From the sequence record MT611523.1: a stretch of DNA of 64,000 nt. One strand, given 5' to 3'. The stretch comes from Escherichia phage DK-13. The notes beneath the pieces are model-generated. The model ran no database searches, had not been told where the DNA came from, and saw only the letters and a program-made list of their open reading frames with translations. The position numbers and the translations under genes are program-made. Shown one piece after another: positions 1,448-26,616 of the stretch (positions are counted from its first letter, which is position 1; each line of letters starts with the position of its first letter).

Positions 1448-2732
1448 AAGCCAACTGGCTCGCTAATGAAGCTTCGGCCATATGGATGCATGGGGTATAG
1501 ATGAATGCTTTGTCTACTGAAACGCCCTGGGCCTTGTGGATTGTACTGACCGGAAGAGCACGAACTTTCAAGAAGGTCCGGCGAGCTTTCCAGAAGTCTT
1601 TCCACTCTGGACGTTTGCCAGCGGCTTTCATCTGTTTGTATGTGTCAGCAACTTTCGCCAGGTATGCCTGGAATTTTGGTTGCTGGTCTTCAGGTAAAAC
1701 TTTGATGCGGTCAACCTGATATTCTTCATCTTCATCAATTGACTCAACTTCCAGGTCCCAGTAATTAATCACCAACTGGTGCGATTCACCTTTACAACGG
1801 AGAATGGTGGAAGTGTATTTGCAATCCTTGATGCGAACCAACTGACCATTATTAAAAATGGTTTCGCTGAATTTCTTGCCTTCAAATTCCAGCTCTTTCA
1901 TGTGTGGCTCTTGCATAACCAGGACTTCATACGGTAAAAATGCTTTATCCGTTTCATAGAGCTTGCGACGAATAATATTGTTCAGTTTTTCAACTGATTT
2001 ATTCGTGTACGCGTACATCCTGTTTTCCATCAGCATATCAGCATCTTTTACAATACTGAAATAGTTTGCCATGAAATCCTTTAAAGCGGTTTGTGAGGTG
2101 AAACCCTGTACACCATGACCCTCATACATACAGTCACGGAACCAACCACCATTACGAATTTCTGTCGCCACTTCAATGATAGGAGCATTGCTTCGCATGA
2201 CCTCAGTCAGATGAATCTGTTTGAACTTAGGATGCGTAAAGAATGGGCTTATCTTTTGTTGTGTGCTTCCTGGGTCAACTGGCTGCAGCTGGTGCATATC
2301 ACCAATCCCAAGAATAGTACACCATTCTGGAACAGAGTTAAGAATAATCTTAAACAGAGACCCGTCATACATACTTGCTTCATCACAAACCAGAACATTA
2401 CATTTTGACATGTCAGGCATTTCGCGCTGTTCAAAAACGTTTTGGTCTTCATATGTGGTCGGGTTAATCTTCAGGATACTATGGATTGTATTCGCCGTTT
2501 GACCAGACAATTTAGATAGAACCTTTTTTGCCTGGTGAGTTGGTGCGGCAAGCACAATTCCCATAACTCCATTACGCACTAAGTGGTCAATGACAAATTT
2601 TGTCAGAGTAGTTTTACCTGTACCAGCTGGACCATTCAGAGTGATACATTCCCCTGAACGTCGTTGAATAGCTTCAGTGATATAATCAAAAGCTTCTTTT
2701 TGTCCTGTGTTCAAGTCTTCAAATTTAATCAT
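1404..2732 (-). CDS. dda: Dda DNA helicase (SF1)
   Basis: 442 aa; Walker A GPAGTGKTT; collinear similarity to T4 Dda over full length (MTFDDLTEGQK-type N-terminus, C-terminal YVGVTR motif). Confidence 0.92.
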   Translation of the reverse strand: MIKFEDLNTGQKEAFDYITEAIQRRSGECITLNGPAGTGKTTLTKFVIDHLVRNGVMGIVLAAPTHQAKKVLSKLSGQTANTIHSILKINPTTYEDQNVFEQREMPDMSKCNVLVCDEASMYDGSLFKIILNSVPEWCTILGIGDMHQLQPVDPGSTQQKISPFFTHPKFKQIHLTEVMRSNAPIIEVATEIRNGGWFRDCMYEGHGVQGFTSQTALKDFMANYFSIVKDADMLMENRMYAYTNKSVEKLNNIIRRKLYETDKAFLPYEVLVMQEPHMKELEFEGKKFSETIFNNGQLVRIKDCKYTSTILRCKGESHQLVINYWDLEVESIDEDEEYQVDRIKVLPEDQQPKFQAYLAKVADTYKQMKAAGKRPEWKDFWKARRTFLKVRALPVSTIHKAQGVSVDKAFIYTPCIHMAEASLASQLAYVGITRARYDAYYV

Positions 2733-3028
2733 GCCAATTTTACTCGCTTAACATATAAAGTATCTAAAACTAATTTCAATTCTCGTGCGTGTTCTTCAGT
2801 AGGAAAAACAGTTTTTGTTTCCCGCTTATCAAACCACCATTTTCTGGGAATATACCGTGTTTCAATACGTCCCATGCGTAAATAGCGGTTTGTAGTATAT
2901 GAATAGTTGGCAAGTTCATACTCTGCGCCCGGTTTTGTGGTGTATAAGGTAACCTTTCCATCATACTCCAATGGGCGTTCAAAACCATCTTTATCTTTGT
3001 GAACCAGCACATATGCGTAGTACATCAC
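2729..3028 (-). CDS. hypothetical protein (99 aa)
   Basis: co-oriented ORF, stop/start overlap with dda; no recognisable motif. Confidence 0.4.
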   Translation of the reverse strand: MMYYAYVLVHKDKDGFERPLEYDGKVTLYTTKPGAEYELANYSYTTNRYLRMGRIETRYIPRKWWFDKRETKTVFPTEEHARELKLVLDTLYVKRVKLA

Positions 3029-3029
3029 A

Positions 3030-3776
3030 TTAACCTCTAATCAGTTTAAAAATTGACGCGTTCAAAGGTAGACCACGTTTCAGTTTTAATTTACCAATAA
3101 AACCAATCTTCTCAAAACGCTCAAGACCTTGAATGATTTTATCATAGCAATCAAAAAGCGTTTCAGCATCAGTTAATTTCTTGGTAACTTTCCAGTCATT
3201 ACCTTTGAGCAGGACATTCAATTTAGTAAGCTCATGTCCTTCCGCAACACGGGAACCATCAATGCGAGCCTTCAGAGCAACCATTTTTAATTGGTTTTCT
3301 TTGGACTGCTCTGATTTACTCATTTGAGCATAATGCTTAACGCGATTATCACGTTTGTGCTGGATGTTCTTGATATGAGTATATGACTTTTTAATCTGTT
3401 CCCATTTCTCTGAAGTCAGATTTAACTTTTCAATCTTCTTGGCAGAGGGGCGAGCAATTTTTACAGCAACATCATCGCGACGTTGTTTAAGCTCATCCAG
3501 GGACCAATCAGAACGCATGGTATTGTATTTCTTTTTAACAGGAATAACATTACCCTTGATATAACCAATATCATTGTTAAAACGCTCTAATGATAACTTC
3601 TCACCTTCAATAGAGTTATTAAATGCTTCACCAGAATAGGCACAAACTTTTTGGTCAAGAATGTTAACCAGGTAATTGAAATCCAGGTTAAAGTCTTTAC
3701 CGCGGCGTTTAGCGGAAGCTTGAGTGTGTTCCAAACGACGTTTAACTTTCAGCGTTTTGGTTTTTGATAAAGTCAT
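3030..3776 (-). CDS. hypothetical early protein (248 aa), in the T4 srd position
   Basis: ATG 3774-3776; own class-B promoter upstream; lysine-rich; srd assignment is by position and size only. Confidence 0.5.
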   Translation of the reverse strand: MTLSKTKTLKVKRRLEHTQASAKRRGKDFNLDFNYLVNILDQKVCAYSGEAFNNSIEGEKLSLERFNNDIGYIKGNVIPVKKKYNTMRSDWSLDELKQRRDDVAVKIARPSAKKIEKLNLTSEKWEQIKKSYTHIKNIQHKRDNRVKHYAQMSKSEQSKENQLKMVALKARIDGSRVAEGHELTKLNVLLKGNDWKVTKKLTDAETLFDCYDKIIQGLERFEKIGFIGKLKLKRGLPLNASIFKLIRG

Positions 3777-6106: not shown

Positions 6107-6248
6107 AATGTTTTCCTCTTACCGACTAATGGACCATCAGGAACTTTATTTTCCTTGATGTACTTTTCGTTTTCTTCCATCATTTTACTGCCAATTTTCA
6201 AAAGCAAATCCAGTGCTTCTTTTGCTCGGCGTTCAGCATCTTCTTGTG

Positions 6249-6443
6249 TCATGATTTATCTCCGTAGATATCACGCATCAGTTTAAGCGCTGCTCGTTCA
6301 GTCTTCTTTTCCTGCATGGCTTTAAGCCCGTTAACGGCCCATTCTTCAGCTTCGCGCTGCATTTCTTCCTCGGCCCTGGCTACCCAGGAATCATCAATCC
6401 CTGGAGTAACCAACCAATCTTTAAGCCAACTTGTAATTCTCAT
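6249..6443 (-). CDS. hypothetical protein (64 aa)
   Basis: co-oriented ORF, acidic/helical. Confidence 0.35.
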
Positions 6444-7566: not shown

Positions 7567-8407
7567 TTTCGAACCTCTTTACCATGTTTATATAATTTTC
7601 GTCTGGATAACCTAAACTAACTGCTAACTTTCTAAAATTCACATATTTAGGTTTGTTATTACTAAGCCATAAATCTCTAAGCTCAATTTCATAATTCCAT
7701 TTAAGCTGGTTTCCTCTAGCAGTTTTGCTCAAAGTTTTTCCTTTATCTTTTAGAGCTTTTTCCGAAGACTGTTTTAATTTTTGGAGATTTAAAACTTCCT
7801 CAACAGATAAATTATTTTCTTCTGCATAGCGCGCACAAAAATCTTTTACTGTAGCTATTAGACAGTTTTTGTGGGTACCTAAAACTTCCGGATTATTTTC
7901 TTCAACCAAAACTCCCCAGTATCTTCGATAGCGAGGCATATCCCGCGAAATCCAGTCATTATACCAGAAATCAAAATTAGAATACATAAAGGATTTTCTT
8001 TTACGGAGAATGTCTTGCTCTATCCACTCCCCGCGTTTATCGGCCCATAACTTAATAGTAAGGTCTTTCTCTAAATCAGAAAGCTTCTTAAACTGGGCAC
8101 TATTTGTTAGTGTCATTCTCTGGAATGCATTAAGCAAACCCAACACCCGAGTTGAGCACAAAAGATAATGAACATATATGTGTTGGTATATAGGAAGATA
8201 CACCCTATTCCAAGGAGAGATTTTAAAATCGCTGTATTCTGGAAATGCACACTTCGGAAGTATATGATGAGCTTCCGTTTTAGATTTGGTATGGACGTTT
8301 AGTTTATACTTATCTATAATTTTTAAGTAATCATCTAAAAGTTCCCATTGCGGGAACTTTTCTTTAAGAACGGATTTGAAATTAATATCCATTGTCCTGA
8401 CGTTCAA
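7559..8407 (-). CDS. HNH homing endonuclease (Mob-like), freestanding
   Basis: TEAHHILPK HNH core motif; sits at the gene 56/soc junction where T4 carries segF; 5' end overlaps gene 56 so exact start is uncertain. Confidence 0.75.
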   Translation of the reverse strand: MNVRTMDINFKSVLKEKFPQWELLDDYLKIIDKYKLNVHTKSKTEAHHILPKCAFPEYSDFKISPWNRVYLPIYQHIYVHYLLCSTRVLGLLNAFQRMTLTNSAQFKKLSDLEKDLTIKLWADKRGEWIEQDILRKRKSFMYSNFDFWYNDWISRDMPRYRRYWGVLVEENNPEVLGTHKNCLIATVKDFCARYAEENNLSVEEVLNLQKLKQSSEKALKDKGKTLSKTARGNQLKWNYEIELRDLWLSNNKPKYVNFRKLAVSLGYPDENYINMVKRFENE

Positions 8408-9221: not shown

Positions 9222-9362
9222 CCAGTAAGAAAAGCCCATGATGTTTCTCTGTGGAACTTACTGGTTGTGCCTATCGCTGCAACACAAGGGGTGCACTTAC
9301 CTCAGGTCACAACGGAACATATCCATTCCATCATCGGTTACTTTACCGGAATCCCTTCCTAA
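9222..9362 (+). pseudogene. start-less, rearranged partial copy of the 8982-9179 gene
   Basis: translation ...LWNLLVVPIAATQGVHLPQV aligns with ...LWNFVVAPIALAHGVILPVV of the upstream gene; no start codon; preceded by a copy of that gene's 3' end. Confidence 0.35.
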
Positions 9363-10108
9363 ACTTTTGCGTACTTCCAAAAATGGCCGTTTGACCTATA
9401 CATTCGGCCTGTCTTTTTATTTCTTTTACAAGCTGTGTATATATTTTGAGTATTGCCCGCCAATTGTAATAATTCCTTTGCCTCAGCTCCCGAATTATAC
9501 TTTTCAAGTATATTACCAAATTCATCGCATCTACAAACCGGTGTTCCAGTTGCCTTTCGGCATGCTTCTCGGCGCAACTTTTTCGTTTCTTCGGTTTGCG
9601 GATTTTCTTTAAATCGTCTCATTTGTGCATCGCGATTCTTTTGCCGTTGTTCATCAGTAATTGGATTATTTTGATAATACAATTTTAATGAGTTGGCTAT
9701 TTTGCTTTTGGTTTTATCAGACGCAGGGTGGTCGTTATGTCGCTTGTGTAAAGCAATTAACATTTTGTCTTTAAACTCGGATTGACTCCATAAGTTTGAC
9801 ATATGTTCACTAACGGCTTTACTATGTTCTTTTCGCATCCATTCATATTTTGCGCTATCAAATTTGTCACCACACATCCGGTGTATAGCAAACATTAATT
9901 TAGAAAGTCGATAAATTTTAAAAAGTAACAAATGCGCAATAAAATGTTCTCTTGCTGATAACAATACCAAATTATCTTCGGTGTCAGGCCCACCCAAACA
10001 CCTTGGTAGTATATGATGGGACTCCGTATAAAATGGGATATTCTTTTTGTTTAGGCCCCTTGCGAGGCCTTTGTCTATTAATTTATTATATAATTTTAGA
10101 TAATTCAT
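9359..10108 (-). CDS. HNH homing endonuclease (Mob-like), freestanding
   Basis: ESHHILPRCLGG ... N ... H HNH motif; ATG overlaps gene 61 stop (ATGA). Confidence 0.8.
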   Translation of the reverse strand: MNYLKLYNKLIDKGLARGLNKKNIPFYTESHHILPRCLGGPDTEDNLVLLSAREHFIAHLLLFKIYRLSKLMFAIHRMCGDKFDSAKYEWMRKEHSKAVSEHMSNLWSQSEFKDKMLIALHKRHNDHPASDKTKSKIANSLKLYYQNNPITDEQRQKNRDAQMRRFKENPQTEETKKLRREACRKATGTPVCRCDEFGNILEKYNSGAEAKELLQLAGNTQNIYTACKRNKKTGRMYRSNGHFWKYAKV

Positions 10109-11133
10109 ATTTTTGCATATTTGGATAATCGAAGTTTTGCCATTAAACCTTGTGCAATATTATCATTCATATAGGCTTCAATTTGCTCAGGCGTTGCTCC
10201 TTCCGATTTAATCATTTCATTTATATCTTTCGTATGCCACGGTGCATTGTCCCAGAACATAACAGCTTCTCCTGCATCGACTAATTTCTTCATACGTTTA
10301 ATTGTATCAGGATGTCTTGCTTCTGAATCCATCACCCATACTCTGGTTTCTGGATAAGGAACAGCTTCCAATGACAATGTTCCACCAGTTATCGCAATGC
10401 TGTTAGGGATAAACAAACTATCAATCGGACCTTCCATTACCCATACACGTTTACGCTCATCAATCTTGTCTACGCCATAGACTTTGGAAGCTTCTGGGTG
10501 AGCTTTGATTGTGATATATTTTTGTGGTGCATCTTTGCGAAGAGCTCGTCCTTGGAAAGATTCGATTTCTTTTTTGCCGTTGAAGATAGGAATAACCAAG
10601 CGTGGTTCATTCGTTTCATTCTTATACGTCCCAGGATTAACGGAGTTAACTAATGCGGGCCATTGGTTTGTAAACCATAACCGGTTCCAAACATTGCTCG
10701 GAATACACCGACTTTTTACATACTTAACTATCGGATGCGCTTCTGGTAAAGTATCGAGTCTTTCACAAAAAGCAAGCTGCTCAATAACCGGAGTTTTTTC
10801 TGGTTCTTTCGGAGTTTCAATGACTTCATTGCGTTGTCGCCCGAAGGCGTTCTCCTTATACTTCTCAACCATATATTCCCGGTGTAAATCCGGCTCAAAC
10901 TCTTTTATGTATTTGCTTATATGCGTGGAGTAGTCACAGTTAAAACATTTCACGTAAACCGCACCATCAGCCGGATTAGTATACGCCCAGAATCGAGCCT
11001 TGTGTGAATCTTTCTGGGAGTCCCCACAAACCTTGCAACGACAGTTTGCTTTAAATGTGCTCCCGGTGACTTCTCTATAACGTGGTTGATACGATAAAGC
11101 TCTGACTGCAAATTCTTTATCAATATATGACAT
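10105..11133 (-). CDS. 61: DNA primase gp61
   Basis: 342 aa; N-terminal CxxC...CxxC zinc ribbon and TOPRIM-like core; T4 gene order 56-61-41. Confidence 0.9.
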   Translation of the reverse strand: MSYIDKEFAVRALSYQPRYREVTGSTFKANCRCKVCGDSQKDSHKARFWAYTNPADGAVYVKCFNCDYSTHISKYIKEFEPDLHREYMVEKYKENAFGRQRNEVIETPKEPEKTPVIEQLAFCERLDTLPEAHPIVKYVKSRCIPSNVWNRLWFTNQWPALVNSVNPGTYKNETNEPRLVIPIFNGKKEIESFQGRALRKDAPQKYITIKAHPEASKVYGVDKIDERKRVWVMEGPIDSLFIPNSIAITGGTLSLEAVPYPETRVWVMDSEARHPDTIKRMKKLVDAGEAVMFWDNAPWHTKDINEMIKSEGATPEQIEAYMNDNIAQGLMAKLRLSKYAKI

Positions 11134-12535: not shown

Positions 12536-12829
12536 TTATTCACCTGTAACCCATTGAACAATTTTGCTATTGTCAAATGAAGCATCGCAATACAGAACAT
12601 AGTTATACTGCATAACGTCACCAGAAGTCAATTTGTCAGATACTTCTTTAACCATATCAGGGCGGTCACGTTTAGTTATGTTCATAATATCAGCATAAAT
12701 CTGATGTTCAACATCAGTCTGGTCGGCAGTCATAGACCACTCACAAAGGTCTTTATCAAGTCCAGCAGTAACTGGAGCTGTACCACATGATGCTACGGTA
12801 AGAATTGCCGCGATTAATAACTTTTTCAT
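12536..12829 (-). CDS. secreted lipoprotein/periplasmic protein (97 aa), possibly Spackle-like
   Basis: signal peptide with lipobox-like VASC; T4 sp position between 61 and 41; own class-A promoter. Confidence 0.45.
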   Translation of the reverse strand: MKKLLIAAILTVASCGTAPVTAGLDKDLCEWSMTADQTDVEHQIYADIMNITKRDRPDMVKEVSDKLTSGDVMQYNYVLYCDASFDNSKIVQWVTGE

Positions 12830-12886: not shown

Positions 12887-13126
12887 CTATTTTAATGCAT
12901 CTTCCAGATAAATTTTGCGGAATTTGCGTTTTGTCTGACGAATCTGACGCTTGGTAGGTTTCACAGGAAATTCGAAGAACTCTACGTATTCTTGTTCATA
13001 ATCATTGTGGCCGACTGAAAGAACTAGTTCCCAGCTGCTTACGGTGCGTTGGATAAACATATTATGCTTACCAAAAGATTTATTCCAAAAAGAACTAGGG
13101 GTAGGTTTCATTAATGCGATATTCAT
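12887..13126 (-). CDS. small basic protein, PTKRQIR paralogue 2 (79 aa)
   Basis: VKPTKRQIRQTKRKFRK C-terminal motif. Confidence 0.45.
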   Translation of the reverse strand: MNIALMKPTPSSFWNKSFGKHNMFIQRTVSSWELVLSVGHNDYEQEYVEFFEFPVKPTKRQIRQTKRKFRKIYLEDALK

Positions 13127-15159: not shown

Positions 15160-15488
15160 CTCTTTTTCATTTTAATCTTATCAATTTCATCTTGTATTTG
15201 CATTGTAACACACTTTTCTACATGCACAGCAAGCTCCGCTTTGCGGTCTTCGGAAGGGGTACCGAAATCAACTGAAACTTTTCCAGATGGTTCAATTTTA
15301 ATTCCGGTTACGTACACAATGTGACTGGACCCATCAGGGAGTGATAACAGAATTTCCTGTCGTACAGTTCCCATGGATTGCCGGATAATCTCCAAACTTT
15401 TTTCGTAGTAAGGTACAGAAGGAGCCTTAGCTCCCTCCGCATCTTTCTCGAAATTATCTAAATCAGATAAATCGATATCATTCATCAA
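15144..15488 (-). CDS. hypothetical protein (114 aa), in the T4 gene 40 position
   Basis: co-oriented ORF between uvsX and 41; assignment by position and size only. Confidence 0.4.
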   Translation of the reverse strand: MMNDIDLSDLDNFEKDAEGAKAPSVPYYEKSLEIIRQSMGTVRQEILLSLPDGSSHIVYVTGIKIEPSGKVSVDFGTPSEDRKAELAVHVEKCVTMQIQDEIDKIKMKKRWWKW

Positions 15489-16656
15489 GGTCTTCCATCA
15501 TATCTAAATCGTTTTCGATATCTGCAGCGGACGGTTTTGTCTTACCTTCAGGAGCAGAGTATTTTTCAACCTTGGAGGCAATAAGCGCATCAACTTCGGC
15601 ATCAACAACAGCATTGCTATCGATTGCACCCAGTTGGTAATGGCGTTTGATTGCATCACGGAAAGGTTCGTGTTTAAACAGCGGCCCCCAGAATTCGGTG
15701 CAGTTAGTATCTTTTGCGCGCCATGATTTTTCTTCGCGGACCATTTCCCCGGTCTCAACATCAAGATATTCACGGTTATACCAACCAACTTTTGGTTTAA
15801 CCACAAATCCGATTTCTATTGCCATATCAAGCAGGCCAGAATACGGGTCAATACCACCATCGAATTTTACATCAATGAAGAATTTACTTTTCTCTTTGAC
15901 CATACGAGATTTTTCGGCGTTCAGAACAAATTGGAAGCCTTCAAGTTCTTTACCAGTTTCTTTAATCTGACGTTTACCGATAATGAATACAGTGTCCGCG
16001 GAATACATAACACCTGTGCCACCGGTCATAACGGTTTTACTGTACATCTCAATCGTCTCGATTGTATGGTTAACCGCGACACAAGGAATATCCTTGATAC
16101 TAAAATAAGGGGTAACAATACGGAACAGAGATTTCAGGGATTTAGCACGAGTCATATCGCCAACGACTTTTTCGTTCATCGCATCTTCTGTTTCTTTTTT
16201 CGACGCCATGTTACCGATTGAGTCAATAAAGATAATGACTTTTTCACCACGCTCAATTGCTTCAAGCTGGTTAACCATATCAACTTTCAATTGTTCAACC
16301 GACTGGATTGGTGTATGGATAACACGCTCCGGGTCTACTTTCATTGCACGAAGATATGCTTCTGTGATACCAAATTCTGAATCATAGAACAAACAGATTG
16401 CGTCGGGGTATTTGTTCATATATGCAGAGACCATCGTTAAACCCATATTGGATTTAAAGTGTTTTGACGGACCAGCAAAAATAGTCAAACCTGACTGCAT
16501 ACCACCATCTAGTGCACCGCTGATTGCAATGTTCAGCATCGGGATTTTTGTACGAACTACATCTTTATCATTAAAGAACTTGGACTTGGTAAGAGTCGCA
16601 GTCATTTTGGATGTAGAAGCTTTAATCAAACGGGATTTCAAATCTGCAATAGACAT
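15478..16656 (-). CDS. uvsX: RecA-like recombinase UvsX
   Basis: 392 aa; Walker A GPSKHFKS; RecA-fold core. Confidence 0.9.
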   Translation of the reverse strand: MSIADLKSRLIKASTSKMTATLTKSKFFNDKDVVRTKIPMLNIAISGALDGGMQSGLTIFAGPSKHFKSNMGLTMVSAYMNKYPDAICLFYDSEFGITEAYLRAMKVDPERVIHTPIQSVEQLKVDMVNQLEAIERGEKVIIFIDSIGNMASKKETEDAMNEKVVGDMTRAKSLKSLFRIVTPYFSIKDIPCVAVNHTIETIEMYSKTVMTGGTGVMYSADTVFIIGKRQIKETGKELEGFQFVLNAEKSRMVKEKSKFFIDVKFDGGIDPYSGLLDMAIEIGFVVKPKVGWYNREYLDVETGEMVREEKSWRAKDTNCTEFWGPLFKHEPFRDAIKRHYQLGAIDSNAVVDAEVDALIASKVEKYSAPEGKTKPSAADIENDLDMMEDLDE

Positions 16657-16735
16657 TCATTTTTTCCATAGGCACCATTATATTTTTCTCACAGGTTTAA
16701 GATAGGATAATTATATCACTGTATTTTCAGAGCAA

Positions 16736-16864
16736 TTAACGATTGAATCCACGATTAATTGCACGTTCAACAATCTTCCGGGTCTGACGTTTGTCCCACC
16801 AGTACATAAAACCAATACCAAATGCAGACAACAGCCATAGGCTAATCAATAACATACCAATCAT
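16736..16864 (-). CDS. small membrane peptide (42 aa)
   Basis: hydrophobic N-terminus and basic tail; below the 60-aa track cutoff, found by hand translation. Confidence 0.3.
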   Translation of the reverse strand: MIGMLLISLWLLSAFGIGFMYWWDKRQTRKIVERAINRGFNR

Positions 16865-16885
16865 AATATTCTTCTCGCAGTTTGT

Positions 16886-17389
16886 TTAGTTAATACCTTG
16901 GCGTGCTTTCTCTTTAGCTACACATTTATTAATATAGCTCAGACGGTTTTGAGCAGAACGCTGATACATATCGCGGTACTCATTAGCTTTTGGAGAACCC
17001 GTCTCTGCTGCCTGATAAGCTTCTGCGCGCATGATGTTTATCTGCATATTGATGTATGACATGCAGACCTGTGAAATCTGGTTAACAGTATCCAGGTCAT
17101 TTTGTCGCTTGGTTTCTGCTTCCAGCTTGGCAATGATTTCGTCATGCTTCGCAGCTTGCTCGCGTTTGTACTCAATTTCTTGTTGAGCATATTTCGCGCA
17201 GTTGTTTCCACATTGATTGTTGTCGCGTTTGTAGATAAGTCCAGTACCACCTTTGAAATCAAAGGAACCATTATGCACCTGACGGTCTGCAGCAATTCGC
17301 GCTTTACCAATCTCGTTGGCATTAACAACATCACCCTGGTAAGCACAACCAGATAGCAGCATAACAGCTGCGATAGCTAACTTTTTCAT
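16886..17389 (-). CDS. lipoprotein (167 aa)
   Basis: signal peptide plus lipobox LLSGC; occupies the locus where T4 has beta-gt and gene 42. Confidence 0.6.
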   Translation of the reverse strand: MKKLAIAAVMLLSGCAYQGDVVNANEIGKARIAADRQVHNGSFDFKGGTGLIYKRDNNQCGNNCAKYAQQEIEYKREQAAKHDEIIAKLEAETKRQNDLDTVNQISQVCMSYINMQINIMRAEAYQAAETGSPKANEYRDMYQRSAQNRLSYINKCVAKEKARQGIN

Positions 17390-17397
17390 TTTGCTTC

Positions 17398-17541
17398 CTA
17401 ATTAAAACATTCATAGCGGGCTTGGAGCCCCAAAAATACCCAACCCAAAATTAAAGTTGGAATCATATGTGGAGTCATTATTGCCCAGTAGATTGACATA
17501 CTAAAAAATGCAATCAGTACAATAATTGTAATTATCTTCAT
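17398..17541 (-). CDS. small membrane peptide (47 aa)
   Basis: ATG overlaps imm stop (ATGA); hydrophobic; hand translation. Confidence 0.35.
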   Translation of the reverse strand: MKIITIIVLIAFFSMSIYWAIMTPHMIPTLILGWVFLGLQARYECFN

Positions 17542-17780
17542 TTTGATTCCTTGATGATAATTACTTGTGCGTTTGATTTACGTTCAGCAACGAGTGCCCA
17601 GATAAATGCAATAAACCATCCGACCATTGTCCAACCTAACAGAAGGTTAACAAAGAAGATTCCGCAATTACTTTTGGTACCACGCAGCAGCGCGATAATC
17701 CACGGCAGAAAATATGCCAGTGCAGCCAGGAAGAAAGAACCAGCCCCAAGAACAACAGTACCCGCAATTAATGTTTCCAT
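17538..17780 (-). CDS. imm: superinfection immunity membrane protein Imm-like
   Basis: 80 aa, two TM segments, LLGWTMVGWFIAFIWAL motif; T4 imm position adjacent to gene 43. Confidence 0.6.
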   Translation of the reverse strand: METLIAGTVVLGAGSFFLAALAYFLPWIIALLRGTKSNCGIFFVNLLLGWTMVGWFIAFIWALVAERKSNAQVIIIKESK

Positions 17781-17817: not shown

Positions 17818-17847
17818 ATCATACGGCAATCCATTGCCGTTGTAAAC
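17818..17847 (-). promoter_or_regulatory. early promoter (-35 GTTTAC / -10 TATGAT) with class-A leader
   Basis: T4-like GTTTAC -35 at 17842-17847, 18-nt spacer, TATGAT, leader TACCTCATCAACTGATGA. Confidence 0.5.
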
Positions 17848-17849
17848 AC

Positions 17850-20564
17850 TTAAAAGTCAAACATGTCAAAAAGAGTTGCTTTCTTTTCGTAATCAACCTT
17901 TGCAGCTTCAGAGAAACCTGTTAATGGCTTAACAAAAGTCTTCTGGAACAGTGTGTTGTAGTCCATCCACTGCAGAACCTGGTCACGGATTTCAATCGGG
18001 AGTTCAATCCCAGATGGCCATGCAATCACGGTTTCACCAAACGGGTTGCCGACTTTAAGAGGAAGTACATACACCTTTTCCCCTTCCATGATTTGCGGAA
18101 CAGTCTTCAGACCTTTAGTTGCACGCATATAAGCAAGCACACCTTTGATATGAGCCGGGCACTTAAATCCAGGGAAACCACCTTCATTATATTTCTGGAT
18201 GTTGTTAACCGATGATACACCTGCGATGGTCATGTAGTTAAGCTCATTAAATTCCTTATTGAATTCCTTGAAGTATGTCTGCAGAGATTCTTCACCTTCT
18301 TGCAGCATGCGGCGGATACATTCTTTCAGAGCTTTCTGACATGCCTTTGGAGTACTCGACTTTTGAGTTTCCAGACCCATAATTTTCAGTTTCGGAACAG
18401 CATAACGTGTGCCTTCCATATCGTACACGTTCAGCGCATAACGCTTCTTCGCCGTCCAGAATCCACCCACACCTTTAGAACCCAGCGGAGGACATGCAAT
18501 CGCCTCACGGTCCATAAACATAAGGTGCTGTTTGTTGTTCATGTATTCAGCCAGCTCACGGAAAGCTTTATCGATTGCCGGTTCCAGACGGTCTTTCGCA
18601 AACTTGTCCATGAAGTCAACCAGGTGGTTTGTATCACGGAATTTAGATTCGCCACCAACCTTTTTAATCAGGTTATCACACTGGATATAAATGGAGTCAG
18701 TATCGCCATAGAACACATAAGTTTCGCCGCTTGTCCCACAAACACTATCGAAGTATTCGTTAACTTTACGCTCAATCCACTGCAATGCAAGTTGTCCGAA
18801 AGATGTAATCGCGGTTGCATTTCGCAGGTCAAAGTAACGGAACCAGATATTGCCCAGAGCGCCATAACAGCTGTTGATAAGCAGCTTACGGTTAATCTGT
18901 GCGGTCATGCCTGCAACTTCTTCCATCTGCGCTTTATACAACATACCATTTAGGACTGTTTGATTCAGACCATGCAAGGTTGTTTTCATATTGTCATCAA
19001 AGTCATGACGATAATCAACTTCAGGTTCGGTTGTACCAGTTCCTGGATTGCGCAGAGCTTCCTTAATCAGTTCACCATTACGTTGAGCCGCAAGCATATA
19101 GCCTTTGTGCTCTTTACGCTGATTAAACACCTTGGTGACTTCTGTCGGAATAATACCCGCAACATCTTTAAAATACATCATACCATTTGGAGCACAACTA
19201 AATGTATCAGATGGACGGTCAGCAGTTCCGGCGATGTATTCATGCATTTGCGCAGGAGCAAATGAACCGGCAATCGTTTCTGGACTGATGTTAATCTGTC
19301 GGATAATGCTCGGATACAGAGATGTTAAGTCACAGCTCATTACATATTTGTACGCGTTCGGAATAGGTTCCTTAACAAATGCACCAGGGAACGATTGACG
19401 AACATGCGATTTGGTTTCCGGAATGACTTTGTTTTGAGTCTTCAGGCTGTTAAAGATAATCGCATCCCAAGTTTTGATTGGGCTGAATACAGACTGAATC
19501 TGCATTTTTGCGTAATAACCCATTGACTGACTCAGGTTAATAAACTGCCGCTTACGGTCAATCTGCACAACACGATAAACGTCGATGATGTTATAAGAAA
19601 TATACCGCTGGTGATTTGATTCGCGCAGTTTAGAAATCGGGCCATCATACGGGAGTTTACCAACACCCAGTTCAGATTCCGCAACATAATCCAACGAATA
19701 AGACGGTTGGTTTGTGAAGCTGAACTTTTTATACAGGTCCAGATAATCCAGAACAGAGATACCCAGAATCTGAATGATTTCTTGTTCTTCACCAAAGCCA
19801 TTGTTAATGACCTTAACTTTTGTACGACGATGTGGGCTCAGACGTTTTGCCGTAGCTTCACCAAATACATTTTTAAGGCGGTTGTAGATATATGGAATAT
19901 CAAATTTCTCGATGTTCCAACCAGTTAACATAACCGGAGTTTTCTCGTTCCAGAATACCAAATACTGCTGGAGCATTTCTTCTTCTGAATCGAAAGCCAT
20001 ATAAACAATTTTTTCCAGGATTTCTTCAGGGACTTCATCACCGCCGTCTTCCTGCAGCTTAGCAGCAATATCAATAGACCATTGCTCCACAGTGGCGTAT
20101 GGTGAGCCCAAAAGGTCAAAGACATAGAATTTATCGTCTACCGAATCATAGTGCGTCAGGGCATCAATAGGGTGACGTGCTTCAGACGGTTCAGGGAACC
20201 CATCAGGAGATGTCACCTCGATATCGAAGTTAGCAACACGGATTTTACTTGAATCATATTTGATTTCGTGTGGGTAACGGTCGGACAAGTATGCGAGTTT
20301 AAAGTCATCCATACCCATAGCTTCGAGACCCATGTCATTCATTCGCTTCATCCACTGGGATGCATCACGCATGGAATCGAATTCTTTTTTCACACAACCT
20401 TTATTATAGATGTCTGTATACTTTGCAGCCTGGCCTTCCCGGGCGTGCATAAACAAGCATGGGGCATAAGGGATTTCACGAACACGTTCATGACCATTCT
20501 TGTCAATATATCGTTCGAGTAGGTTGTCACCGATTTGTTCGATAGTTAAATAAAATTCTTGCAT
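17850..20564 (-). CDS. 43: DNA polymerase gp43 (family B)
   Basis: 904 aa; exo motif FDIEV, pol motifs DLTSLYPSI and YGDTDS; collinear with T4/RB69 gp43. Confidence 0.95.
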   Translation of the reverse strand: MQEFYLTIEQIGDNLLERYIDKNGHERVREIPYAPCLFMHAREGQAAKYTDIYNKGCVKKEFDSMRDASQWMKRMNDMGLEAMGMDDFKLAYLSDRYPHEIKYDSSKIRVANFDIEVTSPDGFPEPSEARHPIDALTHYDSVDDKFYVFDLLGSPYATVEQWSIDIAAKLQEDGGDEVPEEILEKIVYMAFDSEEEMLQQYLVFWNEKTPVMLTGWNIEKFDIPYIYNRLKNVFGEATAKRLSPHRRTKVKVINNGFGEEQEIIQILGISVLDYLDLYKKFSFTNQPSYSLDYVAESELGVGKLPYDGPISKLRESNHQRYISYNIIDVYRVVQIDRKRQFINLSQSMGYYAKMQIQSVFSPIKTWDAIIFNSLKTQNKVIPETKSHVRQSFPGAFVKEPIPNAYKYVMSCDLTSLYPSIIRQINISPETIAGSFAPAQMHEYIAGTADRPSDTFSCAPNGMMYFKDVAGIIPTEVTKVFNQRKEHKGYMLAAQRNGELIKEALRNPGTGTTEPEVDYRHDFDDNMKTTLHGLNQTVLNGMLYKAQMEEVAGMTAQINRKLLINSCYGALGNIWFRYFDLRNATAITSFGQLALQWIERKVNEYFDSVCGTSGETYVFYGDTDSIYIQCDNLIKKVGGESKFRDTNHLVDFMDKFAKDRLEPAIDKAFRELAEYMNNKQHLMFMDREAIACPPLGSKGVGGFWTAKKRYALNVYDMEGTRYAVPKLKIMGLETQKSSTPKACQKALKECIRRMLQEGEESLQTYFKEFNKEFNELNYMTIAGVSSVNNIQKYNEGGFPGFKCPAHIKGVLAYMRATKGLKTVPQIMEGEKVYVLPLKVGNPFGETVIAWPSGIELPIEIRDQVLQWMDYNTLFQKTFVKPLTGFSEAAKVDYEKKATLFDMFDF

Positions 20565-24933: not shown

Positions 24934-26616
24934 TCATTCCAGAACAGTAAATCGACCGACTTTTTTCATTTGAAGATGCTGTCCATATGCTTCTGGGTCG
25001 TGTTCACGATGGCTAATGATAAACACGTTTTGACCTTCCAATTTATTAATAATTGCCTGGATAGCTTTGATGCCTTCGGCGTCAGTGGCTGAATCCATGA
25101 CCTCATCCAGAATCAACGTACTAATTTGCACACCAGATACTTTCGCAGCAATATCACGCCATGTAAACAGCAATGCGATATCGATACGAGCTTTTTCACC
25201 CTGGCTAAATGATGCATAGCTGAAGTCTTCACGTCCACGAGATTTAATCGTTTCGTTGAACTCTTCATCTAACGTAAAACTATAATCAGCTTCCATAACT
25301 TTAAGATAAGCGTTTATCTGCTTATTAAAGATAGGAATATATTTCTTAATAATCGCGCCCTTAATACCAGAATCTTTCAACATATCCGTTAAGATACCAC
25401 GTTGATATTTTTCCATCACAAGGTCGGATTTTTGTTTGACTATTTTATCAAGCTGGTCTTGAAGCATTTTAATGTCTGCTGCATGGTCAATAAATTCCGA
25501 CTTAGCTTGCTCGATTAATGCTTTAACCTTTTTAGCTTTTTCGACAGTCTGGACTAAGGTTTGTTTCTTAGTTTGAATGTCTTGAGCTATTGTACGCTGG
25601 TTTTGTCTTGCCTTGGTATACGCATCAAATTGCTCTTGAACAGCATTCTGGCGAGCTTTATGCTTATCAGCTGATGCATTACATTCTTCAATCTTTGACT
25701 CAATCCTGGCGACAATGGGGTCTCCTGGATGCAACTGACTGGCACAAGTCTGACAACAACCACCTTTCTCGTACAGACCAACAACCTTTCGGTAATCGTC
25801 TATCTTCGACTTAATCAGGAATGATTCCTGCTTTAACTTCGTGAGTTCATGCTCAGGGTCTTCTCCCAAGATTATCTCGGTCAGTCTTGTTGTTGCTTCT
25901 TCGATAGTCGTCTTGATTCCACGTGCTTCTGTGGCAAGTTCATCATACATCGTTTGCAGCCGCAACAGATTATCACCTGATAATTTTCTTTGACGGTCTT
26001 CGTTGTCCTGATAGATTTTAATCTGTTGAACAATACCATCATGCTGCACATCCATCACCTGGATTTGACTATTGACTTCACGGATAAGAGATTTGTTCAG
26101 CTTATCCATATCGGCCAGTACAGAAACCTCTAAAAGGTCTTCGACGAGTTTTCTTCTTGCAGGAGTGGATAGGCCCATAAAAGGGGTATATCCAGCTGTG
26201 CCGAGTACGACAATCTGTTTGAAGCTTGCGTAGGACATTCCAATGAGCTGTTCAAATTCCGCTTGGAAGTCTTTACTGCTGGCAGATTCATCAAGACGTT
26301 TACCGCCACAAGAGATTTCAAAAACATTGGGTTTTTGCCCGCGTTTGATATAGTATTCTTTTCCATCATATTCCATCCACAATTCAACGAGCATATCTTT
26401 TTTGTTGCTCGAGTTAATCAACTGGCCTTTCTTTACATCACGGAAAGGCTTACCGAACATAGCAAAGGTAACCGCTTCAAGGAACGTAGATTTACCCGCA
26501 CCATTCTTGCCGGTGACCAGAGTTTTTTGGACTTTATCCAGTTCAACAGTAATCGGTTGAGCACCAACCGACATAATATTTTTATAGATAACTTTCTTAA
26601 GCTTAAAAGTCTTCAC
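24934..26616 (-). CDS. 46: recombination nuclease subunit gp46 (Rad50/SbcC-like)
   Basis: 560 aa; Walker A GKNGAGKST, zinc hook GGCCQTC, Walker B LILDEVMD. Confidence 0.92.
   Translation of the reverse strand: MKTFKLKKVIYKNIMSVGAQPITVELDKVQKTLVTGKNGAGKSTFLEAVTFAMFGKPFRDVKKGQLINSSNKKDMLVELWMEYDGKEYYIKRGQKPNVFEISCGGKRLDESASSKDFQAEFEQLIGMSYASFKQIVVLGTAGYTPFMGLSTPARRKLVEDLLEVSVLADMDKLNKSLIREVNSQIQVMDVQHDGIVQQIKIYQDNEDRQRKLSGDNLLRLQTMYDELATEARGIKTTIEEATTRLTEIILGEDPEHELTKLKQESFLIKSKIDDYRKVVGLYEKGGCCQTCASQLHPGDPIVARIESKIEECNASADKHKARQNAVQEQFDAYTKARQNQRTIAQDIQTKKQTLVQTVEKAKKVKALIEQAKSEFIDHAADIKMLQDQLDKIVKQKSDLVMEKYQRGILTDMLKDSGIKGAIIKKYIPIFNKQINAYLKVMEADYSFTLDEEFNETIKSRGREDFSYASFSQGEKARIDIALLFTWRDIAAKVSGVQISTLILDEVMDSATDAEGIKAIQAIINKLEGQNVFIISHREHDPEAYGQHLQMKKVGRFTVLE

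Follow-up and report, generated by a model that had tools for sequence, protein, structure and literature searches.

The stretch of DNA analysed here (the window) comprises 64,000 nucleotides of Escherichia phage DK-13 (MT611523.1), a Gaprivervirus of the VR7/SP18/P479 type (98.5% nucleotide identity). Between the DNA polymerase gene gp43 (17850-20564) and uvsX (15478-16656), positions 16736-17780 contain four closely packed open reading frames on the minus strand. They correspond to imm (17538..17780, 80 aa), encoding an inner-membrane superinfection immunity protein orthologous to T4 Imm, an orthologue of 42.1 (17398..17541, 47 aa), a lipoprotein gene (16886..17389, 167 aa) and the gene of a 42-aa membrane microprotein (16736..16864). 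These are the four frames proposed in a previous sequence-only reading; they were found again on that strand and at those positions, and family matches together with purifying selection place them beyond chance. In nearly all comparisons with sister phages the pN/pS values of the four frames were 0-0.2, indicating that all four genes are under purifying selection. A sigma-70-like promoter candidate (TTTACA-17-TATGAT, 17818..17846, minus strand) is located between the gp43 stop codon and imm. It has 10 of 12 consensus matches, such sites being no commoner in the region than in shuffled expectation, and its spacer includes an 18-nt palindrome that forms a 7-pair stem in the RNA fold. The RNA fold of the spacer has a z-score of -2.0, intergenic hairpins are unremarkable, and an Rfam search for RNA elements at the locus gave no match; we consider the promoter candidate and its palindrome a weakly inferred feature. 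The spackle (sp) orthologue (12536..12829, minus strand; phrog_1586 at 1.2e-42) lies 4 kb from the imm cluster.

The assignment of the 80-aa product as an Imm-like protein was right. It matched PF14373 (Imm_superinfect) with an E-value of 1e-17 (64.2 bits, for a gathering cut-off of 27.9) and phrog_1039 with an E-value of 1.9e-30, and shares 52% identity with T4 Imm from end to end (83 columns, E 2e-29). Residues R33 and W50, which are required for exclusion by T4 Imm (bioRxiv 10.64898/2026.03.06.709160), are invariant in our Imm alignment (A6). In the same study, T4 Imm was found to bind the tape-measure protein of the superinfecting phage, and plasmid-borne T4 Imm excluded T4 by itself. By orthology to T4, DK-13 Imm would thus reside in the inner membrane, bind gp29 of the superinfecting phage and block the DNA channel to the cytoplasm. 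Five of the six comparisons made for imm gave a pN/pS of 0.07-0.36; the value of 0.64 against P479, the remaining one, comes from three substitutions.

The 47-aa frame matched phrog_3610 (E 7.6e-27) and the 49-aa T4 ORF 42.1 (L004 6228-6377; BLASTP E 3e-13, 57% identity over the C-terminal 30 residues). The two proteins belong to the same length class, share the C-terminal motif MIPTLI..W..LQ.(K/R)(Y/F).C(F/I)N and show no notable difference. The T4 42.1 ORF carries no annotation in NC_000866. Hydropathy revealed two hydrophobic segments in 42.1 and agreed with the label of membrane peptide given to both the 47-aa and the 42-aa products. The ATGA that was said to couple the 47-aa frame to imm is present at 17538-17541, and the same imm/42.1 overlap occurs in T4, JS98 and VR25. 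An ATGA overlap also joins 42.1 to an arabinose-5-phosphate isomerase gene in Mosig-, Winkler- and Kanagawaviruses; imm is not the only gene to which 42.1 is coupled by ATGA.

The lipoprotein gene starts 8 nt past the 42.1 stop codon. The N-terminus of its product, MKKLAIAAVMLLSGC, contains the expected lipobox (L-S-G-C, Cys15) followed by an alanine at position +2. None of the family members listed has an aspartate at +2, supporting outer-membrane sorting, and the lipoprotein is predicted to be anchored in the outer membrane; apart from the signal peptide it has no hydrophobic segment. Some relatives (P0020, P0028 and P0029) have ordinary signal peptides and would therefore be soluble periplasmic proteins. 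Deep homologue searches returned a tiny family found in phages only; at 50% identity it comes to no more than 17 representatives in a set of 1.8 billion proteins. Identity across genera ranges from 98% down to 30%, pN/pS is 0.05-0.2, and C109 and C156 are invariant. The AF2 model (pLDDT 82) shows a disordered tether, helices at 24-38 and 61-129, the latter 69 residues long, with a beta hairpin at 41-55 between them, and two return helices. Fold comparison of the lipoprotein matched nothing informative, and a PDB sequence profile search gave nothing useful (E 0.15). Pfam and NCBIfam searches with the lipoprotein and the peptides gave only matches below threshold or at the level of the signal peptide: FerB, DUF553 and, over residues 4-35, a T6SS immunity lipoprotein (E 0.0045).

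By position, the lipoprotein is the counterpart of T4 Imm.1, an early protein classified as DUF5481 in Pfam (PF17578, UniProt P18057). Both match phrog_1754 from end to end (6.6e-47 for the DK-13 protein, 6.1e-43 for Imm.1). They share a signal peptide with lipobox and Cys15, a mainly helical character, a gene adjoining imm, the mature N-terminal motif QG-VVN-x-x-[DE]-[VI]-GK, and four cysteines each, of which the two C-terminal ones are in register. They differ in length (125 aa for Imm.1 and 167 aa in DK-13), in the beta hairpin GTGLxYxR-NQCGxNC, which T4 Imm.1 lacks, and in gene place, the DK-13 gene lying downstream of imm-42.1 and T4 imm.1 upstream of imm. Whereas the DUF5481 Pfam model detected T4 Imm.1 at 5.2e-72, it did not match the DK-13 lipoprotein at E-values up to 1, nor the relatives P0008 and P0015. 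Alignment by hhalign with two DUF5481 alignments extended over only 23-31 N-terminal columns, that is the signal peptide and the next residues (E 6.7e-9 and 5.5e-7). When only the mature sequences were aligned globally, the probability was 3.6% (P 0.004), with two cysteines in register. A BFVD Foldseek search with the lipoprotein retrieved only its JS10 and CIP9 relatives, and the model of T4 Imm.1 (pLDDT 60.6) was too poor for fold comparison. The mature domain of the DK-13 lipoprotein is at most a putative homologue of DUF5481, no alignment beyond the N-terminus being convincing. T4 imm.1 is early at both the RNA and the protein level, as is sp (PMC9697503, supplement). We found no paper discussing imm.1 or DUF5481, imm.1 occurring only as a row in the supplementary tables of the T4 omics study PMC9697503; the main text of the CRISPRi-ART paper is silent on these genes.

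The cluster had been described as occupying the T4 glucosyltransferase/gene-42 locus. This holds in so far as gene 42, beta-gt and segA are absent: tblastn over the whole window gave no match to gene 42 or beta-gt, and only a marginal one to segA (E 4e-4, near 7571-7699); arabinose-5-phosphate isomerase and orf052-like genes were not found in the window either. The lipoprotein and the 47-aa peptide are residents rather than replacements, since T4 itself has imm.1 and the 49-aa ORF 42.1 flanking imm. Positions 16736-17780 are therefore neither a replacement module nor special to DK-13; they are the Gaprivervirus version of the known and conserved T-even imm.1/imm/42.1 cluster, with the lipoprotein gene on the opposite side. 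The 42-aa ORF, which had been counted as part of the module, does not belong to its core. Its product is a single-pass protein with a basic C-terminal tail, conserved at 95-100% in 16 Gaprivervirus records, with 9 synonymous and 1 non-synonymous changes against four sister phages, and it is missing from SP18 and EAWsc9 through an indel of about 143 bp. In Dhakavirus IME281 a 43-aa homologue (...RKIVDKAINRG...) is located directly upstream of uvsX, 4 kb from imm. The 42-aa ORF is a micro-gene in its own right, linked to the slot upstream of uvsX; it may lie beside the cluster because the cytosine-modification genes found between the two in other T-evens are missing from this genus.

Adjacency of an envelope-targeted lipoprotein to imm, as the sequence-only reading had it, proved to be conserved. 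A lipobox ORF was found within 1.3 kb of imm and on the same strand in 25/25 T4-like IMG/VR loci, against 1-2 of 55 non-T4-like ones; the T4-like loci share ancestry, so that this count amounts to only two or three independent rearrangements. A lipoprotein gene also stands beside an Imm homologue in the non-T4-like locus L052, and its product falls outside the lipoprotein family. Three arrangements were observed: 43-lipoprotein-imm is the order of Tequatro-, Gelderland- and Jiaodaviruses as well as of three other contigs (about 170-173 kb), and 43-imm-42.1-lipoprotein that of Dhaka- and Gapriverviruses, while in Mosigvirus the lipoprotein-imm pair is inserted between 61.4 and spackle, being directly upstream of sp in MM02. 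Between VR25 and DK-13, identity drops to 40-80% over about 17800-16700, whereas uvsX shows 93-100% and gp43 mostly 83-100%; the imm-42.1-lipoprotein block was exchanged in VR25 as one cassette. The DK-13 Imm allele differs markedly from those of its sister Gapriverviruses, with 67% identity to VR25 and 86% to VR7. Since the VR7 lipoprotein is 98% identical to that of DK-13, the two genes also recombine independently. In Winklervirus X20, of whose 172 kb we examined 137, we found no Imm, yet the lipoprotein and 42.1 are kept; among Enterobacter phage records, far fewer match Imm than match the lipoprotein. The lack of Imm in the examined part of X20, together with the sufficiency of T4 Imm alone, indicates that the accessory proteins and Imm do not depend on each other, and this evidence speaks against an obligate coupling of the lipoprotein and 42.1 to Imm.

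The explanation that we prefer, with a confidence that falls a little short of even, is an imm locus in which the lipoprotein provides an Imm-independent layer of envelope defence and 42.1 acts as a membrane modulator. The envelope-targeted genes would be set compactly for co-transcription directly downstream of the DNA polymerase gene. In the periplasm the lipoprotein would present a helical hairpin of about 10 nm, stapled by a disulfide, and serve early in infection against incoming phage, either in exclusion or in resistance to lysis from without; most likely it would do so by engaging some portion of the tail tip as it penetrates, or the zone of cell wall that the tip crosses. The 42.1 protein would be a helical hairpin embedded in the membrane and synthesised in step with the product of the upstream gene, and probably modulates an inner-membrane component. 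A role of the accessory proteins in exclusion is plausible but hypothetical. A more specific proposal, which we consider somewhat unlikely as it stands, is that T-even exclusion, or resistance to lysis from without, has another component that has gone unrecognised, namely the imm-adjacent lipoprotein family, possibly joined by 42.1. The lipoprotein would be an outer-membrane-tethered periplasmic helical rod that intercepts the tail tip or the tape-measure protein before the inner membrane is reached, in parallel with Imm in the inner membrane and Spackle in the periplasm, allelic diversity setting the specificity between related phages.

The conserved gene order might also be a matter of synteny alone, with no function in common. 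In that case the lipoprotein and 42.1 would be early envelope proteins with a role outside superinfection, such as envelope stabilisation, the timing or inhibition of lysis or host-range adaptation, and would lie near imm only through joint inheritance of the plastic stretch that follows gene 43. We take this as a real possibility, though one to be doubted rather than expected. It agrees with the retention of both genes in X20, with the coupling of 42.1 to a metabolic gene in three genera, with the sufficiency of T4 Imm and with the independent recombination seen in VR7. However, the lipoprotein and imm are still adjacent after their move beside spackle in Mosigvirus and after the change of order in Dhaka- and Gapriverviruses, and the boundaries of the exchange in VR25 match the cluster.

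An improbable alternative is receptor masking, which the sequence-only reading had also suggested, in the manner of T5 Llp or phi80 Cor; we found neither the Llp/Cor fold nor sequence similarity beyond the signal peptide. Here the lipoprotein would bind the periplasmic face of the phage's outer-membrane receptor, blocking adsorption of further phage and sparing progeny from inactivation on cell debris. Llp is reported to act by receptor masking (PMC9586334). Like Llp and the Cor proteins of phi80 and N15, which are phage-encoded outer-membrane lipoproteins made in infection, the DK-13 protein is a predicted outer-membrane lipoprotein of a lytic phage with an early T4 counterpart, and its rapid divergence between genera is expected if different receptors are tracked. 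However, it differs from them in size and fold: where Llp is small, the DK-13 protein is a long rod of helices spanning some 150 residues. Its one match to Cor (phrog_1119, E 0.022) is confined to residues 1-17, which form the signal peptide, and the relatives with ordinary signal peptides would not be tethered to the outer membrane. To our knowledge, no receptor has been linked to the family that includes the DK-13 lipoprotein and Imm.1. Far less probable still is a spanin-like pair, in which the lipoprotein and a small membrane protein would bridge the inner and outer membranes for lysis. An outer-membrane lipoprotein gene beside genes of small inner-membrane proteins, a long helix and periplasmic cysteines would suit such a pair, but VR7, SP18 and other T-evens have assigned spanins of the PseT.3/PseT.2 family (PMC6139136), the lipoprotein is far larger than known o-spanins, neither 42.1 nor the 42-aa product has a periplasmic coiled-coil domain, and T4 imm.1 is expressed early. 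The lipoprotein also lacks the C-terminal transmembrane segment of a unimolecular spanin. We rejected the spanin reading on the presence of the PseT.3/PseT.2 spanins and the lack of a periplasmic domain in the neighbouring products.

Should the lipoprotein indeed prove to be an additional exclusion factor, an outer-membrane or periplasmic layer would be added to the model of how an infected cell is sealed by T-even phages. As T-evens given together interfere with one another, the design of phage cocktails would then also have to weigh an exclusion cassette that varies between phages. The mechanism of Imm itself was proposed only in 2026. The locus is an ordinary one, whose proteins already appear as hypothetical in hundreds of GenBank records; the useful yield of the analysis is a sharper testable hypothesis and a set of annotation corrections.

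Superinfection exclusion by T4 is a textbook system credited to Imm and Spackle. DK-13 Imm resembles T4 Imm in the layout of its hydrophobic helices, in its position downstream of gene 43 and in having 42.1 next to it with an ATGA overlap, and differs in being three residues shorter at the C-terminus. T4 Spackle (gp61.3), a small soluble protein of the periplasm, inhibits the gp5 lysozyme; its structure has been solved and its target is known. The lipoprotein resembles it in neither sequence nor fold, but Spackle is a parallel to the role proposed here in being an early, exported T-even protein that acts on the incoming phage, and Mosigvirus encodes it directly after the lipoprotein-imm pair.

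The phage is a T4-like coliphage of the genus Gaprivervirus; over the 3 kb around its imm cluster it shares 98.5% identity with Escherichia phage P479 and 95-98% with VR7, VR20, VR26 and SP18. The minus-strand gene order is gp41, gp40, uvsX (15478-16656), a 42-aa ORF (16736-16864), a 167-aa ORF (16886-17389), a 47-aa ORF (17398-17541), an 80-aa ORF (17538-17780) and gp43 (17850-20564), with uvsX and gp43 flanking the cluster. The 80-aa product had been called Imm-like, and its matches to PF14373 (E 1e-17) and phrog_1039 and its 52% identity to T4 Imm agree with this; the 167-aa and 47-aa products matched phrog_1754 (E 6.6e-47) and phrog_3610 (E 7.6e-27), respectively. Other features proposed by the sequence-only reading were found in the sequence: the lipobox of the 167-aa product (MKKLAIAAVMLLSGC), the ATGA overlap between imm and the 47-aa ORF (17538-17541) and the tight spacing, with next gaps of 8 and 21 nt. 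Hydropathy bore out the two membrane peptides, with a single N-terminal segment in the 42-aa product and two segments in the 47-aa product; the lipoprotein has no membrane segment past its signal peptide. Compared with five or six sister Gapriverviruses, synonymous change greatly exceeded non-synonymous change in all four ORFs, pN/pS being 0-0.2 in nearly all comparisons; the one higher value, 0.64 for imm against P479, rests on three substitutions. The four ORFs are real genes.

The corresponding T4 region (NC_000866) runs 43, imm.1, imm, an unannotated 49-aa ORF overlapping the imm stop codon by ATGA, 42, beta-gt, segA and uvsX. T4 Imm.1 is itself a lipoprotein (MKIAILVIALGLAGC...; Pfam DUF5481), and both it and the window lipoprotein match phrog_1754 end to end. 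The window 47-aa ORF is orthologous to this T4 49-aa ORF, for which the annotators of VR7 use the name 42.1. It is close to certain that the window locus is the conserved T-even imm cluster. The imm locus and Imm are already known, and the other cluster genes appear as hypothetical proteins across hundreds of GenBank records, while a few records name Imm.1 "immunity protein" by association; literature searches on imm.1 and DUF5481 turned up no paper that treats the function of either. T4 Imm binds gp29, the tape-measure protein, and keeps the genome from being translocated, which requires R33 and W50 (bioRxiv 10.64898/2026.03.06.709160). These two residues do not vary among the window Imm and its relatives, and orthology indicates that the window protein would be an inner-membrane protein working as T4 Imm does.

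Several annotations at these loci deserve mention. The T4 RefSeq record leaves 42.1 unannotated (26227-26376; 6228-6377 of the fetched locus) and gives imm.1 (T4p046) the product name "iduronate sulfatase", which looks spurious for a 125-aa DUF5481 lipoprotein. For the JS98 homologue of 42.1, the annotated 36-aa product begins at 2383 of the fetched locus; a 45-aa frame from 2356 (2356-2493) shows the ATGA overlap with the imm stop that T4 and the window also have.

The 42-aa ORF, which no PHROG covers, occurs in 16 Gaprivervirus records at 95-100% identity and is missing in SP18 and EAWsc9, where an indel of about 143 bp has removed it. Dhakavirus IME281 (NC_055740) has an unannotated 43-aa homologue (MLGPLLLF...REVRKIVDKAINRGIK; 1186-1317 of the fetched locus) with the same C-terminal RKIV-[ED]-[RK]-AINRG. 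Since this homologue lies directly upstream of uvsX, 4 kb from the imm cluster, the 42-aa ORF belongs to a uvsX-proximal slot, and its place beside the imm cluster in the window is due solely to the absence of the intervening genes from the genus. The homologue points to a uvsX-tied, conserved and mostly unannotated membrane microprotein gene.

Other sites were noted in the window. Upstream of uvsX, at about 16700-16730 (minus strand), AATTGCTCTGAAAATACAGTGATATAAT is kept in all Gapriverviruses aligned, with one variable base (G in the window and P479, A in VR7 and EAWsc9). A MotA-box-like TGCT precedes TATAAT by about 12 nt, a layout similar to that of T4 middle promoters. Between gp43 and imm, a promoter-like site (17818-17846, minus strand) contains an 18-nt palindrome, ACGGCAATGGATTGCCGT, which fills the 17-nt spacer and extends into the -10 hexamer; its fold z-score is only -2.0. 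A gene for a 249-aa HNH-type homing endonuclease (9359-10108, minus strand; phrog_655, 6.6e-45) directly follows the primase gene (10105-11133), the two overlapping by 4 nt.

We then considered the relation of the lipoprotein to Imm.1. Both have four cysteines and, right after the lipidated Cys, the motif QG-VVN-x-x-[DE]-[VI]-GK. The Pfam DUF5481 model did not match the window lipoprotein, and profile-profile alignment with DUF5481 extended over no more than the signal peptide and the first residues that follow it (E 6.7e-9 and 5.5e-7), so that membership of this family was rejected. Global hhalign without signal peptides gave a probability of 3.6%, with two C-terminal cysteines in register. 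Homology to Imm.1 is thus less firm than the common PHROG implies; the window lipoprotein is the positional counterpart of Imm.1 and may be a remote homologue.

Its own family is small and appears phage-restricted: 1.8 billion proteins include 17 representatives of it at 50% identity. Named members belong to Dhaka-, Gapriver-, Kanagawa-, Winkler-, Gelderland- and Jiaodaviruses or to three further contigs of about 170-173 kb. Two cysteines, C109 and C156, are invariant, and most members have a GTGLxYxR-NQCGxNC hairpin. Asp at +2 is found in none of the members listed, so sorting to the outer membrane is predicted. An ordinary signal peptide without lipobox occurs in a few relatives (P0020 and the DUF5481 relatives P0028 and P0029). 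In many members the last residue is Asn, often within E/A-S-N (relatives P0009, P0011-P0014, P0016, P0019 and P0020; loci L006 and L008). An AlphaFold2 model built on a 17-sequence alignment was fairly confident (pLDDT 82). In it, Cys15 is followed by a disordered tether, a short helix and a beta hairpin; then come a helix of 69 residues, about 10 nm in length, and two helices that fold back on it. A Foldseek search of the PDB gave nothing informative (best E 1.4), and BFVD returned family members only.

To follow the association of the two genes, we scanned 80 IMG/VR loci encoding Imm relatives for lipobox ORFs. A same-strand lipoprotein ORF lay within 1.3 kb of imm in all 25 T4-like loci, which are not independent of one another, as against only 1 or 2 of 55 loci in other phages; one such lipoprotein proved not to be a family member. 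The pair was kept together in three arrangements: 43-lipoprotein-imm in Tequatro-, Gelderland- and Jiaodaviruses and three further contigs of about 170-173 kb; 43-imm-42.1-lipoprotein in Dhaka- and Gapriverviruses; and lipoprotein-imm-sp in Mosigvirus, away from gene 43. In Mosigvirus MM02, lipoprotein-imm lies between a 61.4-like gene (phrog_2375) and spackle (1976-3284 of the fetched locus); in the window, no gene separates the 61.4-like gene (12887-13126) from sp (12536-12829). Identity between VR25 and the window is 93-100% in uvsX and mostly 83-100% in gp43, but only 40-80% (nucleotides) across about 17800-16700. The borders of this drop match the cluster; the imm-42.1-lipoprotein block, lying between two replication genes, has thus been exchanged by recombination as one cassette.

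The lipoprotein scan also picked up the MM02 spackle copy (1976-2269). Spackle signal peptides, including that of the window sp, hold a lipobox-like V-A-S-C or A-V-S-C. T4 Spackle is described as soluble and periplasmic, and the lipobox pattern has therefore probably given a false positive here.

The exclusion role proposed by the sequence-only reading is a reasonable hypothesis, and this synteny backs it better than before. A time-resolved omics study of T4 places imm.1 among early RNAs and early proteins, like sp, and imm among middle RNAs and early proteins (PMC9697503 supplement). We tentatively favour, at somewhat below even chances, a T-even imm cluster combining the Imm block with an extra lipoprotein layer and a 42.1 hairpin. 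The lipoprotein would be made early and be anchored in the outer membrane, its rod-like domain lying in the periplasm, and would add an Imm-independent layer of envelope defence against incoming phage; 42.1 would be a hairpin embedded in the membrane, its conserved C-terminus (Y-x-C-F-N) probably facing the cytoplasm by the positive-inside rule. An exclusion role for the lipoprotein specifically is plausible but less likely than not.

Synteny without common function is somewhat less probable than the favoured reading. Several observations count against a tight functional unit. Plasmid-borne T4 Imm alone excludes T4 (bioRxiv 10.64898/2026.03.06.709160). Winklervirus X20 (Serratia phage, MF036692) has the order 43-lipoprotein-arabinose-5-phosphate isomerase-42.1 and carries sp, and an Imm profile found no match in 137 of its 172 kb (all but the structural block, 80-115 kb). 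Among Enterobacter phage records, 16 match the lipoprotein and fewer than 8 match Imm. The ATGA coupling of 42.1 is to whatever gene precedes, imm in T4, JS98, VR25 and the window, the isomerase gene in Mosig-, Winkler- and Kanagawaviruses. Finally, VR7 is 86% identical (amino acids) to the window in Imm and 98% in the lipoprotein, only imm being divergent, which indicates that the two genes can recombine separately as well. Receptor masking of the Llp/Cor type is improbable, as similarity to Cor is limited to the signal peptide and there was no fold match. A spanin-like lysis role is very improbable, VR7 and SP18 already having spanins of the PseT.3/PseT.2 family (PMC6139136).

Compared with T4, the window has no gene 42, beta-gt or segA between the cluster and uvsX. 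Gene 42 (gp42, dCMP hydroxymethylase) and beta-gt (beta-glucosyltransferase) gave no tblastn match across the 64-kb window (1-64000), nor did the Mosigvirus arabinose-5-phosphate isomerase and orf052-like genes; segA gave only a marginal match (E 4e-4), located elsewhere. The gene-42/glucosyltransferase locus had been described as occupied by the four ORFs. The lipoprotein and the 47-aa peptide, at least, are not replacements of gene 42 and beta-gt: T4 has imm.1, imm and 42.1 too, making these two resident members of the imm locus. The two phages differ further in gene order, the window lipoprotein gene lying downstream of imm-42.1 and T4 imm.1 upstream of imm.
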